A stretch of DNA of 64,000 nt from Microthrixaceae bacterium (GCA_947455015.1 CANGMY010000001.1:432-64431); one strand, 5' to 3'; shown: positions 18,958 through 42,830, counted from the first letter of the stretch. The notes: a model not told the origin generated them from the letters alone. Made by a program: numbers and translations.

Positions 18958-18999
18958 GTGAGCACGACGGTCCTTACCTCGCTCGTAGTACTCCGCTAG
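18958..18999 (+). CDS. Putative ilvB leader peptide MSTTVLTSLVVLR
   Basis: GTG...CTC GTA GTA CTC CGC TAG; Val/Leu cluster directly before hairpin and terminator. Confidence 0.75.
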   Translation: MSTTVLTSLVVLR

Positions 19000-19063
19000 C
19001 ACACGCCGGCTTCGTCCGTCGCGTGTGCGCCCCCGGCCTCCCACTCGGGAGGCCGTTTACGTT
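18999..19063 (+). promoter_or_regulatory. ilvBNC attenuator (hairpin plus intrinsic terminator)
   Basis: GCACACGC 18999-19006 pairs with GCGTGTGC 19021-19028; CGGCCTCCC/GGGAGGCCG stem 19034-19055 followed by TTTACGTT. Confidence 0.75.
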
Positions 19064-19119
19064 CCGCCCGTTCGAACCGGCCCGATCCCGCTGATGCCTA
19101 GGCATCGGGGAGGACAACC

Positions 19120-20850
19120 ATGAAAACCAACGGTGGTGCCGCACTCATCAAGGCTCTCGAACTCGAGGGCGTCGATGTGATCTTTGGTCTGCCCGGTGGC
19201 GCAATCCTGCCGGTCTACGACCCGATCATCGACTCGCCAATTCGCCACATTCTCGTTCGTCACGAACAGGGTGCAGGCCACATGGCCGAGGGTTACGCGC
19301 ACGCAACTGGGCGTCCCGGTGTCGCGATGGTCACCAGCGGCCCGGCCGCGACGAACATCATCACGCCGCTCGCCGATGCCTACATGGACTCTGTGCCGAT
19401 GGTTGTCATCACCGGTCAGGTCGGTACCGCAGGTATTGGTACCGACGCGTTCCAGGAAGTCGACACCGTCGGCATCACCCGTTCGGTCACCAAGCACAAC
19501 GAACTCGTGACGAACGCTGCCGACATTCCGCGCATCGTGCGCGAGGCATTCCACATCGCGACGACCGGTCGTCCGGGCCCGGTGCTCATCGACATTCCGA
19601 AAGACCTCGTCGATCCCACCAACCCGAACTCGGCGCTTGATTGGTACTGGCCCGATTCGGTCGACCTCGCCGGTTACAAACCGCGTCTCGACGGTGATCC
19701 CGCGCTCATCAAGGATGCCGCGCAACTGATCATCGCTGCAGAACGTCCCGTCATCTACGCCGGTGGCGGCATTCTCAAGGCGCGCGCTGCTGAATCCCTT
19801 CTTGCGCTTGCCGAGTTGCTCGACATCCCCGTCGTCACCACACTCATGGCGCGCGGCGCGGTTCCCGACGATCATCCGCTGTGTCTCGGTATGCCGGGTA
19901 TGCACGGCAACTACACCGCTGTCACCGCGATGCAGGAATCCGATCTGCTCATCGCCCTCGGTTCACGTTTCGACGACCGAGTCACCGGCAAGCTCGACGC
20001 ATTCGCTGCGAACGCCAAAATCATTCACGTCGACATCGATCCTGCCGAACTCGGCAAGGTCCGTCGACCCGACGTCGGCATCACTGGCGATTGTCGTTTG
20101 GTCATTAACGAACTGATCACTGCGCTGAAGCAGATCGGTGCGCCAGAAGTGCAGCCCGATCGTTCCTCTTGGAAGTCCACCATCAGCGGATGGCAAGAGA
20201 AGTACCCGCTGTCCTACGTGCAGTCCGAACCGGGCGATTTGTTGAAGCCGCAGTACGTGCTTGAACAACTTCGTGACAACACTCCCGACGACTGCATCGT
20301 TGCATCGGGCGTTGGTCAGCATCAGATGTGGACAGCGCAGTACTGGAAGTTCAACCATCCCTATACCTGGATCAACTCTGGTGGCCTCGGAACGATGGGC
20401 TTCGCTGTTCCGGCGGCAATCGGCGCCAAGGTCGGCCGTCCCGATCGCATGGTGTGGGCTGTCGACGGTGATGGTTGTTTCCAGATGACTGCTCAGGAAC
20501 TCGTTACCGCTGCGGCCGAGCGCATTCCCGTCAAGATCGCAATTCTTAACAACGCGTATCTCGGAATGGTTCGTCAGTGGCAGGAGATGTTCTACGAAGA
20601 GCGTTACAGCGAGGTCTACCTCTCGCCGGATCTTCCTGATTACAAGATGTGGGCCGAAGCCATGGGTTGTGTCGGTATGCGCGTCGAAGCTCCTGAAGAT
20701 GTTCTTCCCGCGATTCAGCGTGCGAACGAAGTTGACGACCGTCCGGTTGTCATCGACTTCCGCACTGATGCTCGCGAGAAGGTCTTCCCGATGGTGCCCG
20801 CAGGCAAGTCCAACTCCGACATCGTTGTCGGGCCGGAGGATGTCCGATGA
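19120..20850 (+). CDS. ilvB: Acetolactate synthase large subunit
   Basis: FGLPGGAILP, RHEQGAGH, TSGPAATN, GMPGMHG, GDGCFQM...NN ThDP motif. Confidence 0.97.
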   Translation: MKTNGGAALIKALELEGVDVIFGLPGGAILPVYDPIIDSPIRHILVRHEQGAGHMAEGYAHATGRPGVAMVTSGPAATNIITPLADAYMDSVPMVVITGQVGTAGIGTDAFQEVDTVGITRSVTKHNELVTNAADIPRIVREAFHIATTGRPGPVLIDIPKDLVDPTNPNSALDWYWPDSVDLAGYKPRLDGDPALIKDAAQLIIAAERPVIYAGGGILKARAAESLLALAELLDIPVVTTLMARGAVPDDHPLCLGMPGMHGNYTAVTAMQESDLLIALGSRFDDRVTGKLDAFAANAKIIHVDIDPAELGKVRRPDVGITGDCRLVINELITALKQIGAPEVQPDRSSWKSTISGWQEKYPLSYVQSEPGDLLKPQYVLEQLRDNTPDDCIVASGVGQHQMWTAQYWKFNHPYTWINSGGLGTMGFAVPAAIGAKVGRPDRMVWAVDGDGCFQMTAQELVTAAAERIPVKIAILNNAYLGMVRQWQEMFYEERYSEVYLSPDLPDYKMWAEAMGCVGMRVEAPEDVLPAIQRANEVDDRPVVIDFRTDAREKVFPMVPAGKSNSDIVVGPEDVR

Positions 20851-21335
20851 GCCCAGCAACTCGCCATCACATTCTTTCCGTACTTGTCGAAAACAAGCCG
20901 GGTGTTCTTGCCCGCGTCTCGGGTTTGTTTGCCCGTCGCGGTTTCAACATCTTCTCGCTCGCTGTCGCGCCCACCGACGACCCCACTCGTAGTCGCATCA
21001 CGATCGTGGTCGATGTGGAATCGGCTCCGCTTGAGCAGATCACCAAGCAGCTCGACAAGCTCATCAACGTGCTGCAGATCGACGAACTCGCTCCCGTCGA
21101 TGCGGTGGAACGCGAGCTCATGATTGTCACGGTGACGGTTTCGGCTGACTCGAAGCCCGAACTGCTTTCTCTTACCGAGGAATACAGCGGTGTGGTTCTC
21201 GACGAAGGCGGAGATCGCATCACTGTTTCTCTGGGCGGAACCCCCGAGGCGCTCGATGCTTTCACCGCCCGCATGGGGGCAGCAGTGGTGGGCTACCAGC
21301 GCACCGGCCGCATCGCCCTTCCTCGCATCGTCTGA
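20847..21335 (+). CDS. ilvN: Acetolactate synthase small subunit
   Basis: LSVLVENKPGVLARVSGLFARRGFNI ACT domain; ATGA overlap with ilvB. Confidence 0.96.
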   Translation: MSPATRHHILSVLVENKPGVLARVSGLFARRGFNIFSLAVAPTDDPTRSRITIVVDVESAPLEQITKQLDKLINVLQIDELAPVDAVERELMIVTVTVSADSKPELLSLTEEYSGVVLDEGGDRITVSLGGTPEALDAFTARMGAAVVGYQRTGRIALPRIV

Positions 21336-21442
21336 TCCCTAGTCAGTTCCGGAGTTCTGGCGCCTTTTCGTCCTGAGCCCCTTTCGTCGTAATCTCTCCA
21401 ATCCGCCCTGCGGGGCGATCCAATCCCGAAACAGGAGTTCCC

Positions 21443-41305: not shown

Positions 41306-42170
41306 GTCGGGCGGCAACGTCTTGGCACGCGCTCAACAGCACATCGGCAAATCGTTCGGGACGAGTCGCGCACATGTCGTGGCGCCCGCTGACTTCGAAA
41401 ACGTTTGTGCCTGAAATCGCGTCAGCAAGTTGGCGTTGGCGATGGGGTGGGACGGTTTCGTCGCGAGTTGTGACTACAACTGCAGTCGGCACATTGACTG
41501 TTTCGATCCAGTTGCGAGCGTCATAGGACGCAACATCGTGGCCGGCCTCGAGCATGATTCGAAGGTCGTTCTGGCGCGCTTGTTCGCGTGCCCAGTTTCC
41601 TAACGGCGTCGTGTCGTATTTGGAAACGAGCACTCGTTCCGAAACTCGTCGGTTGACTGAAGATGGGGCCACTCGCGTTGCGAACGAAAGTCCGGTCACG
41701 ACTCCGCTAAGAGCACGCTCGCCGCGACGATCGCGGAATCTTGCTGCAGTCGCACACAGCACGAGACCTTCGATCATTTTTGGATGGCGTCTCCAGAGCA
41801 ACTGAGCGATCGGTCCGCCCATCGAATAGCCGACGGCGATTGCGCGTTCGATGCCGAGAACTTCAAGAACCGCAGCCGCATCATCAGCGCAGTCTTCGAG
41901 TTTGAATCGACGCCGACTTCGGATGCCTTGTCCGTGGCCGCGATGATCCATCGCAACCACGTTGAACTCGCGCTGCAGCGATTCGTAGGTTCCAAACCAA
42001 TTCAGCGCGGAATTCGCGGTCCACCCGTGCAGCAGAAGAAGCGTGGGCGCGCCGGGAGGGCCGGCGGCTTCGCGAATCCAGGTGGTCCCGCGATCGGGCA
42101 GATCCAGAGCGCGACCCTCGGGAAGACCTGGGGTCAGGAACGGCGTGGACCCAGGAAGCGCGGGCGACAT
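41298..42170 (-). CDS. Alpha/beta fold hydrolase
   Basis: LLHGW, DHRGHG, GYSMGG, DETVP, GRH; start trimmed to ATG 42170. Confidence 0.88.
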   Translation of the reverse strand: MSPALPGSTPFLTPGLPEGRALDLPDRGTTWIREAAGPPGAPTLLLLHGWTANSALNWFGTYESLQREFNVVAMDHRGHGQGIRSRRRFKLEDCADDAAAVLEVLGIERAIAVGYSMGGPIAQLLWRRHPKMIEGLVLCATAARFRDRRGERALSGVVTGLSFATRVAPSSVNRRVSERVLVSKYDTTPLGNWAREQARQNDLRIMLEAGHDVASYDARNWIETVNVPTAVVVTTRDETVPPHRQRQLADAISGTNVFEVSGRHDMCATRPERFADVLLSACQDVAARLS

Positions 42171-42183
42171 ATGAACGAAGCCG

Positions 42184-42648
42184 TCAGGCTTCGATAGCGA
42201 CGATTTCGACCTTGAGGACGCCGCCCGGAGCTTCGAAGTCGACGATGTCGCCGACTTTGGCGCCCATGAGGGCGACACCGAGAGGGGACCCGGGCGTGAG
42301 CACTTCGAGCTCGCCACGTTCCTCGACTGAACCGACCAGAAGGCGTTCGACCTCGTCATCGCCTTCGTAGCGGATGCTGACGATCACGCCGGCAACGACT
42401 GCGGAGCCATCGGCGGCCTCGACGATTTCGGCATCGAGAAGGAGTGCCTCGAGTTGGCGGATCCGGGCTTCCATCTTGCCCTGCTCCTCTTTGGCGGCGT
42501 GGTAGTCGCCATTTTCGGAGAGATCGCCCATTTCGCGGGCGGCCTGGATCTTGCGGGCAATATCGACCCGACCATGGGTGGTGAGCTGCTCATGTTCGGC
42601 GCTCAGCCGGTCGTGGGTCTGTTGGGTGAACTGGTGGACGTCGGCCAT
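42184..42648 (-). CDS. greA: Transcription elongation factor GreA
   Basis: AREMGDLSENGDYHAAKEEQ, SPLGVALMG. Confidence 0.95.
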   Translation of the reverse strand: MADVHQFTQQTHDRLSAEHEQLTTHGRVDIARKIQAAREMGDLSENGDYHAAKEEQGKMEARIRQLEALLLDAEIVEAADGSAVVAGVIVSIRYEGDDEVERLLVGSVEERGELEVLTPGSPLGVALMGAKVGDIVDFEAPGGVLKVEIVAIEA

Positions 42649-42720
42649 CTCGCCAGCGTACAAGGCACCCGTGGAACTCGCCTAGGGCGCCGGAAGGGGG
42701 TCGGGCTAGAGTCATGAGCC

Positions 42721-42771
42721 ATGTCCACACCGAGCCCACGCCGTTCGCGCTCCATCGTGATCATTCGCTAG
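42721..42771 (+). CDS. Putative leuB-ilvE-cimA leader peptide [16 protein letters not shown]
   Basis: ATG 8 nt after TAGAGT; ATC GTG ATC ATT CGC TAG Ile/Val cluster. Confidence 0.78.
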
Positions 42772-42830
42772 CGCACGCCGAACCCGGTGTGCGCCCTCGG
42801 CCGTCCACCCCGGTGGGCGGCTTTCTCGTT
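42771..42830 (+). promoter_or_regulatory. leuB-ilvE-cimA attenuator (hairpin plus intrinsic terminator)
   Basis: GCGCACGCCG/CGGTGTGCGC hairpin 42771-42794; GCCGTCCAC/GTGGGCGGC stem 42800-42821 followed by TTTCTCGTT. Confidence 0.78.

Follow-up and report, generated by a model that had tools for sequence, protein, structure and literature searches.

Three branched-chain amino acid (BCAA) transcription units, those starting with ilvB, leuA and leuB, lie in a 64,000-nucleotide (nt) stretch of DNA from a Microthrixaceae bacterium (GCA_947455015.1, CANGMY010000001.1:432-64431; the whole stretch analysed is hereafter called the window). Each is preceded by a short upstream open reading frame (uORF) and two hairpins. 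We read them as leader-peptide transcription attenuators with leaderless uORFs, one from each of three conserved classes, that would divide the control of BCAA synthesis among them. This reading is drawn from sequence analysis, and we give it a probability of about 0.75. The three elements themselves are real, conserved and codon-tuned, and the scheme in which ilvBNC responds to Val/Leu, leuA to Leu and the citramalate operon (leuB-ilvE-cimA) to Ile is right in outline.

Direct reading of the sequence located the leaders before ilvB, leuA and leuB, as the original prediction had described (Table 1). In all three, the uORF ends with a run of control codons, one Arg spacer codon and TAG, and the G of this TAG is the first paired base of the hairpin that follows (hairpin A); both details had been predicted and were found in each leader. 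Hairpin A is followed by a second hairpin with a U-rich tail, so that an intrinsic terminator separates each uORF from the first gene of its operon. A terminator-like site was predicted in every leader, and the folding z-scores of the leaders ranged from -3.1 to -5.2 against dinucleotide shuffles. The predicted common design, with control codons that differ between the leaders and fit the pathway step downstream, also recurs in relatives: each of the three short uORFs contains a run of codons for an end product of the pathway, and the class-specific runs are kept. The ilvB leader has CTC GTA GTA CTC as its control codons and CGC as its spacer.

The original prediction had also noted that the ilvB and leuB copies are alike in sequence. 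A covariance model built mostly from leuB-type relatives agrees, as in the host genome it scored the leuB leader with 77 bits, the ilvB leader with 34 bits and the leuA leader weakly, with 15 bits. No other credible copy was found in this genome, so the leader element is not a generic repeat. A weak fourth match to the model (contig C53, 13.6 bits) was dropped; it is coding-like and has no uORF or terminator.

No Shine-Dalgarno (SD) sequence precedes the uORFs, in agreement with the prediction. In most relatives the ilvB-class promoter pattern is TTGCC[AG], 17-19 nt, nAnACT, with the start codon 6-9 nt further on, and Leu-class relatives have TTGACG at a similar spacing to the uORF ATG. This promoter spacing is kept and leaves no room for an SD sequence. 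It suggests that the uORFs are leaderless, with transcription starting at or next to the start codon. For the leuB leader we identified a -10-like sequence and no -35 element.

We then compared the leaders with those of related genomes. For the Ile class, 80 leuB loci were taken from related genomes; for the ilvB and Leu classes, one genome was sampled per family of the order. A simple uORF scan of the leuB loci yielded leaders ending in V-I-I-I-x-stop, whose hairpin, TAG-CGCACG, hardly varied and whose terminator was CCGTCC...GGGCGG, and the covariance model detected the Ile-type element in 60/80 Acidimicrobiales leuB loci. It lies before leuB in 28 loci and between ilvE and cimA in 32. As the gene order leuB-ilvE-cimA is kept throughout the related loci whichever position the element has, cimA is the constant target of the Ile element. 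The original prediction had treated this leader as a leuB leader: its site before leuB stands, and its target, judged from synteny in relatives, is rather cimA and the citramalate route. About 11 loci that have leuB, ilvE and cimA show no detectable Ile element.

The ilvB-type element was present in 27 of the 30 family-level ilvB loci; its leader ends in L-V-V-(V/L/I)-x-stop, its hairpin A begins CGCACGCC and its terminator is GACCTCCC...GGGAGGTC. The Leu-type element occurred in 19/21 short-form leuA loci of the order, with the leader end x-L-L-L-(T/R)-stop, invariant control codons CTn CTn CTT, a hairpin A of the form GGCGAGC...GCTCGCC and the terminator CCTCCTGCGCC...GGCCAGGAGG followed by T6. 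Matches to the model were found in 35 of the 41 genomes of the order, at most two per genome. In a phylum-wide sample, from which two genomes with weak matches (G041 and G088) were left out of all claims, ilvB-type leaders also appeared in other classes and one Leu-type leader was found outside the class, before a short-form leuA-like gene. In this sample, the Ile type was found within the class only.

The position of the control codons is strict: the run occupies codons -5 to -2, and exactly one variable codon precedes the stop. In the ilvB class, GTA makes up 42/57 (74%) of the Val control codons, as against 2.2% of the Val codons in the genes of the window. Within the Ile class, leaders before leuB-ilvE-cimA contain at least one Val in 25/28 cases and a mean of 2.6 Ile, and leaders directly before cimA contain four Ile in 28/32 and Val in 2/32; the cimA and leuB loci fall in few clades, so this correlation between codons and position represents few independent events. 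The stop codon of the Ile class was TAG in 56/56 aligned elements, and the next base was C in 49; this TAG-C context may also slow peptide release. In the other classes, leaders with TGA or TAA often have an extra G inserted, which keeps the GCGCACG stem.

Covariation across relatives had been proposed as a check on the prediction, and both hairpins do covary in the Ile and ilvB classes. In the Ile class 93.6% of cells were paired and 12/21 pairs showed compensatory change; 0/500 shuffles were as high, and slid controls gave 28-50%. The corresponding values in the ilvB class were 88% paired cells and compensatory change in 19/21 pairs (9/11 in hairpin A and all 10 in the terminator), with 0/500 shuffles as high and 35-55% in the slid controls. 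In the Leu class, compensatory change was seen in 9/18 pairs of the consensus fold. The lower stem of hairpin A (TAG-CGCACG...CGTGCGC) is near-invariant in the ilvB and Ile classes and its upper stem covaries freely. Hairpin A is 8-13 base pairs (bp) long and starts to pair at -2 to +2 relative to the final stop-codon base; a spacer of 0-6 nt separates it from the terminator, which is GC-rich, mostly 8-11 bp long and followed by 5-7 U in the next 8 bases.

According to the original prediction, a duplicated attenuator module was retuned by codon swaps. A recent duplication in this genome was not borne out, as the classes are old and separately conserved, and over ~40 families of the order each retains a terminator sequence of its own. 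For the ilvB and Ile classes a common ancestry is plausible from sequence because TAG-CGCACG is common to both, and for the Leu class a common ancestry with the others is weakly indicated.

In the mechanism that we propose, transcription would start at or near the uORF start and a ribosome would at once translate the leader of 11-16 codons. It would sense Val/Leu, with the rare GTA, on behalf of ilvBNC, Leu on behalf of the short-form leuA, and Ile together with one Val on behalf of leuB-ilvE-cimA. With plentiful charged cognate tRNA, the ribosome would reach the stop codon and most transcripts would be cut short by the second hairpin with its U-tract; with scarce cognate tRNA, it would stall on the control run and more polymerases would read through. 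We infer the translation of the uORFs, the termination at the second hairpin and the dependence on amino acids from the features described above. Because there is a single spacer codon and hairpin A begins in the stop codon, a ribosome that stalls on a control codon would not disturb hairpin A, and one that reaches the stop codon would unwind about half of it. When the last control codon occupies the A site, ~11-12 nt lie between the first P-site base and the foot of hairpin A, which is roughly the distance at which a duplex can still persist, given the position of the ribosomal helicase. By this geometry, with the reach of the ribosome taken from the literature, the post-stop hairpin would be free when the ribosome stalls and masked when it terminates.

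The switch step that would follow can only be inferred, because the two hairpins do not overlap and no alternative pairing between them is conserved. Switching could do without an RNA antiterminator if hairpin A served as a collapsible tether, an idea that we consider speculative and unlikely. A ribosome stalled flush on the intact hairpin A, 0-6 nt from the base of the terminator, could then make it harder for the terminator to close at the RNA exit channel, by steric hindrance or by contact with RNA polymerase; a ribosome at the stop codon would unwind hairpin A, lengthen the tether by ~20 nt and allow termination to proceed. Such a tether would account for the one-codon spacing and the start of the hairpin in the stop codon, as well as for the short and constrained spacer and the apparent avoidance of pairing between the 3' arm of hairpin A and the 5' arm of the terminator. 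If true, it would be a new coupling of translation to intrinsic termination.

Several observations weigh against attenuation as we propose it. The terminator formed in every ribosome-masked equilibrium fold. The segment from the 3' arm of hairpin A through the spacer to the 5' arm of the terminator folded no better than shuffles (mean z +0.7, +1.1 and 0 in the three classes), and the distal 5' arm of hairpin A with the terminator base was 60.2% paired versus 59.7% in shuffles. An extended hairpin A, in which codon -1 and the stop pair with the spacer or terminator base, was 41% paired, the same as shuffles, and the consensus fold of RNAs cut before the 3' arm of the terminator left its 5' arm unpaired. 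In addition, related genomes are not independent samples, and the Ile and ilvB alignments were fitted to the model, which biases them towards structure. Finally, mutations of the ilvB leader codons in Streptomyces coelicolor were without effect (as reported in PMC1262725).

Most of these results concern the search for an antiterminator. The uORF 5' region paired with the 3' arm of the terminator at mean z of -0.66, -0.43 and -0.05, and in the Leu class neither the pairing of the hairpin A 5' arm nor that of its 3' arm with the terminator 5' arm covaried beyond shuffles. The antiterminator pairings that had been proposed for these leaders failed across relatives in the shuffle and consensus-fold tests. 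We found no antiterminator whose formation would rule out the terminator, and the first hairpin does not overlap or exclude the terminator; the two coexist in all folds. This bears directly on a classical four-region attenuator, in which a stalled ribosome would mask the 5' arm of hairpin A and the freed remainder would pair with the terminator, at its 5' arm or at its base. Such pairings can be drawn in the window: with 5-9 nt after the stop masked and the terminator 3' arm absent, the leuB leader has an alternative fold of -9.9 kcal/mol, the ilvB leader one of -10.7 kcal/mol (GCCGG with CCGGC) and the leuA leader one of -7.3 kcal/mol (GGCGC with GCGCC), and 87% of cells in the Leu class could form a 5-bp GGYGC:GYGCC pairing, versus 20-63% in slid controls. 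However, the alternative folds of the window are not retained in relatives, the alternative pairings are neither kept nor covarying in the Ile class, and the cross-pairing of the Leu class does not covary beyond shuffles either. The geometry also gives the wrong regulatory sign, as a stalled ribosome should not open hairpin A and a terminating one would. We therefore regard the four-region scheme as quite unlikely.

The near-invariant lower stem of hairpin A in the ilvB and Ile classes could instead mark a binding site for a protein or another factor that modulates termination without any sensing of ribosome stalling. Much the same has been put forward for the actinobacterial LEU element. The missing antiterminator and the S. 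coelicolor leader-codon mutants, which kept their regulation (PMC1262725), would fit this explanation. It leaves unexplained, however, why control codons and the gene behind them agree so strictly at more than 100 loci, why a single codon always separates the run from the stop, and why the rare GTA is used; hairpin A of the Leu class differs in sequence, and the control codons are required in Mycobacterium tuberculosis (PMC13236596). We consider it very unlikely. The second hairpin could also just act on RNA stability or be a terminator that is constitutive or leaky, in which case the uORFs would contribute little to regulation and control would be left to feedback inhibition and the IclR-family regulator. 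This would be in keeping with the interrupted U-tracts (TTTnnCGTT), but purifying selection across the order on the codons, the spacing and both hairpins is hard to explain in this way, and we hold it to be highly improbable. Rho-dependent termination with the C-rich uORF as a rut site was set aside by reasoning, given uORFs of 33-51 nt and a normal U-tract. No RNA data set was listed for the stretch 34100-43400, and the contigs of three runs presumed to be RNA, from 90-95% identical relatives, contained no usable transcript starts or ends. One presumed-RNA contig, from a ~93% identical relative, ends at 34342, directly behind the terminator of the leuA leader, and a contig of another run bridges this site, which is too weak to serve as evidence.

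How do these leaders compare with known systems? Escherichia coli and other enterobacteria divide BCAA sensing among leaders of ilvBN (Val/Leu), leuABCD (Leu) and ilvGMEDA (Ile/Val/Leu). The split of BCAA sensing by codon that the original prediction described therefore holds in outline, and its principle is textbook knowledge from enterobacteria. As here, the enterobacterial attenuators have different control codons for each operon and couple stalling to an intrinsic terminator; unlike here, their leaders have an SD sequence, longer peptides, control codons in region 1 and a strong overlapping antiterminator. Neither in sequence nor in Rfam do the leaders of the window resemble them, and we know of no enterobacterial BCAA attenuator that controls citramalate synthase.

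The closest counterpart of the ilvB leader is in M. tuberculosis. There the ilvB1NC leader likewise has L-V-V-I codons including GUA, a post-stop hairpin and a Rho-independent terminator; induction is lost when LVVI is replaced with AAAA, and the terminated leader RNA, ~120 nt long, is plentiful (PMC13236596, 2026). In the model of these authors the post-stop hairpin is the 'ON' element, which a ribosome at the stop codon is proposed to mask (PMC13236596). This regulatory logic fits the geometry here, in which stalling would free the first hairpin and a terminating ribosome would mask it. In contrast, the first hairpin and the terminator are mutually exclusive in the M. tuberculosis model, whereas here they do not overlap and no competition is conserved. 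Compared by its published description, the M. tuberculosis leader looks like a member of the same family as our ilvB-type element. That work deals with ilvB only and describes neither the Ile (cimA/leuB) nor the Leu (short-form leuA) class.

In Corynebacterium glutamicum, the ilvBNC leader encodes IlvL (MTIIRLVVVTARRLP; PMC11857589; Morbach 2000 as cited there), and the uORF is leaderless, with a transcription start one nucleotide from the start codon (PMC11857589). The leaderless uORF and the GUA control codons are as here, and CUU and GUA are conserved there (PMC11857589). By these published descriptions, the M. tuberculosis and C. glutamicum type of ilvB leader has a leaderless uORF with L-V-V-(I/V) control codons that use the rare GUA; the ilvB leader of the window, with its CTC GTA GTA CTC and its promoter spacing, fits this type. 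The layout is also similar, in that the hairpin next to the stalled ribosome is the antiterminator in C. glutamicum and is followed by the terminator. Unlike here, however, C. glutamicum has a third hairpin, an anti-antiterminator, its control codons lie six codons ahead of the stop, and a GCC trinucleotide belongs to both antiterminator and terminator.

Seliverstov et al. 2005 described BCAA-codon uORFs beside terminator hairpins upstream of actinobacterial ilvB and noted that components of a classical attenuator are missing in these leaders (PMC1262725), a property that they have in common with the leaders analysed here. That paper has no leuB or cimA element (PMC1262725). It does describe the LEU element, a terminator-less pseudoknot before long-form leuA in which Leu codons pair with the leuA SD sequence (PMC1262725). 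In the window, leuA is of the short form, and its leader closes with a terminator ~60 nt upstream of the leuA start codon; by the form of leuA and by the terminator this leader is set apart from the LEU element as published. Long-form leuA (TIGR00970) was not found in the host genome, which is 81% complete.

Whether this kind of RNA was already catalogued had been left open by the original prediction. We scanned the window and the leaders against Rfam, and no existing family matched: at gathering score, the only match in the whole window was the tRNA gene at 50177-50248. Rfam has a Leu_leader family and no model of the LEU element. Even at E values up to 10, only chance-level matches were obtained in the three leaders, so that none of the curated families fits them, the Leu, Thr, His and Trp leaders included. 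The ilvB class is the already known actinobacterial ilvB leader. In a full-text literature search we found no description of an Ile leader on cimA or leuB, and an Ile-specific leader on cimA appears undescribed. The Ile and short-form-leuA classes are thus new members of a kind of attenuator that is already known.

Table 1. Leader elements and BCAA-related genes in the window
Feature	Position	Strand	Basis or remark
ilvB leader, promoter-like TTGCCG, 18 nt spacer, AAGACT	18919-18948	+	GTG 9 nt downstream
ilvB leader, uORF MSTTVLTSLVVLR-TAG	GTG 18958 to TAG 18999	+	sequence reading
ilvB leader, hairpin A	18999-19028	+	fold, class covariation
ilvB leader, terminator hairpin	19034-19055; with tail TTTACGTTCCG to 19066	+	fold, terminator call
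ilvB	19120-20850	+	Pfam, NCBIfam
ilvN	20847-21335	+	Pfam, NCBIfam
ilvC	21443-22477	+	Pfam, NCBIfam
serA	32606-34162		family search
leuA leader, promoter-like TTGCAA, 17 nt spacer, CAGACT	34204-34232	+	ATG 6 nt downstream
leuA leader, uORF MRSFALELLLR-TAG	ATG 34239 to TAG 34274	+	sequence reading
leuA leader, hairpin A	34274-34299	+	fold, class consensus fold
leuA leader, terminator hairpin	34300-34328; T6 tract, tail CGTTCTC to 34340	+	fold, terminator call
leuA, short-form 2-isopropylmalate synthase	34395-35978	+	TIGR00973, 684 bits vs cut-off 599
leuD	~35980-36576	-	NCBIfam
leuC	36593-37996	-	NCBIfam
IclR-family regulator, divergent from leuCD	38095-38763	+	Pfam
leuB leader, -10-like TAGAGT	42707-42712	+	8 nt upstream of uORF ATG
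leuB/cimA leader, uORF, 16 residues	ATG 42721 to TAG 42771	+	sequence reading
leuB/cimA leader, hairpin A	42771-42794	+	fold, covariation
leuB/cimA leader, terminator hairpin	42799-42822; with tail TTCTCGTTCC to 42832	+	fold, terminator call
leuB	42899-43879	+	NCBIfam
ilvE	43891-44808	+	NCBIfam
cimA	probable ATG 44798, end 46441	+	TIGR00977, 671 bits vs cut-off 450

The host is a freshwater Acidimicrobiales metagenome-assembled genome (1.76 Mb, 250 contigs), and DNA of the window was found in lake-water metagenomes. Its closest relatives are freshwater and soil Acidimicrobiia, and it belongs to this class and not to the Actinomycetia. Gene identities were assigned with NCBIfam and Pfam profiles (Table 1). 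The gap between leuB and ilvE is 11 nt and that between ilvE and cimA is -11 nt; because the probable cimA start overlaps the ilvE end by 11 nt, leuB-ilvE-cimA form one tight operon. In the region 44792-44808, the probable ATG of cimA at 44798 is preceded by GGAG and overlaps the last 11 nt of ilvE, and the overlap suggests translational coupling. The longest cimA ORF would start with a TTG at 44756, which is probably not in use. With TIGR01124 and TIGR01127, no threonine dehydratase (ilvA) scored above the cut-off in the host genome (81% complete), and given that no ilvA was found, the citramalate route via cimA may be the sole source of 2-oxobutyrate. The remaining pathway genes, leuCD, had been predicted to be under IclR control. 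The IclR-family gene is indeed divergent from leuCD, and the order leuC(-) then IclR(+) recurs in relatives, so this part of the claim is supported by synteny; control of leuCD by the regulator in this organism is presumed from its position. The same position is occupied by NdgR/LtbR in other Actinobacteria, and NdgR regulates leucine biosynthesis (PMC4340878).

A few further features of the leaders recur. The tail behind the U-tract is kept in all classes as U3-6, 1-3 nt, (G/A)UU(U/C), a C-rich stretch and CGG; in the window these tails lie at 19056-19066, 34329-34346 and 42823-42835. In the leuA leader, the tail sequence CCGGCC can pair with the 3' arm of the terminator (hairpin 34315-34346). 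The terminator 3' arms of the ilvB and Leu types resemble strong SD sequences (GGGAGG, CAGGAGG), for example at 19047-19055 and 34317-34326, and their 5' arms resemble an anti-SD sequence (CCTCC). Some uORFs hold an exact copy of the terminator 5' arm; one of them, at locus L106, contains CGACCTCCC. The control codons of the Leu class (CTCCTCCTT) resemble the terminator 5' arm as well, with no significance in a shuffle test.

Taken together, the three leaders give a coherent BCAA regulatory map for the Acidimicrobiia, a large and mostly uncultured class. The threonine-independent route to isoleucine has its committed step at citramalate synthase, and if cimA is the sole source of 2-oxobutyrate, the Ile leader would be the main isoleucine control point. 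As the codon content follows the genes behind the element, these loci amount to a natural experiment on how the specificity of an attenuator is tuned. With more than 100 natural variants, a strict geometry and no overlapping antiterminator, they also make the switching of actinobacterial ilvB-type leaders directly testable, and their non-overlapping two-hairpin layout could hide something new.

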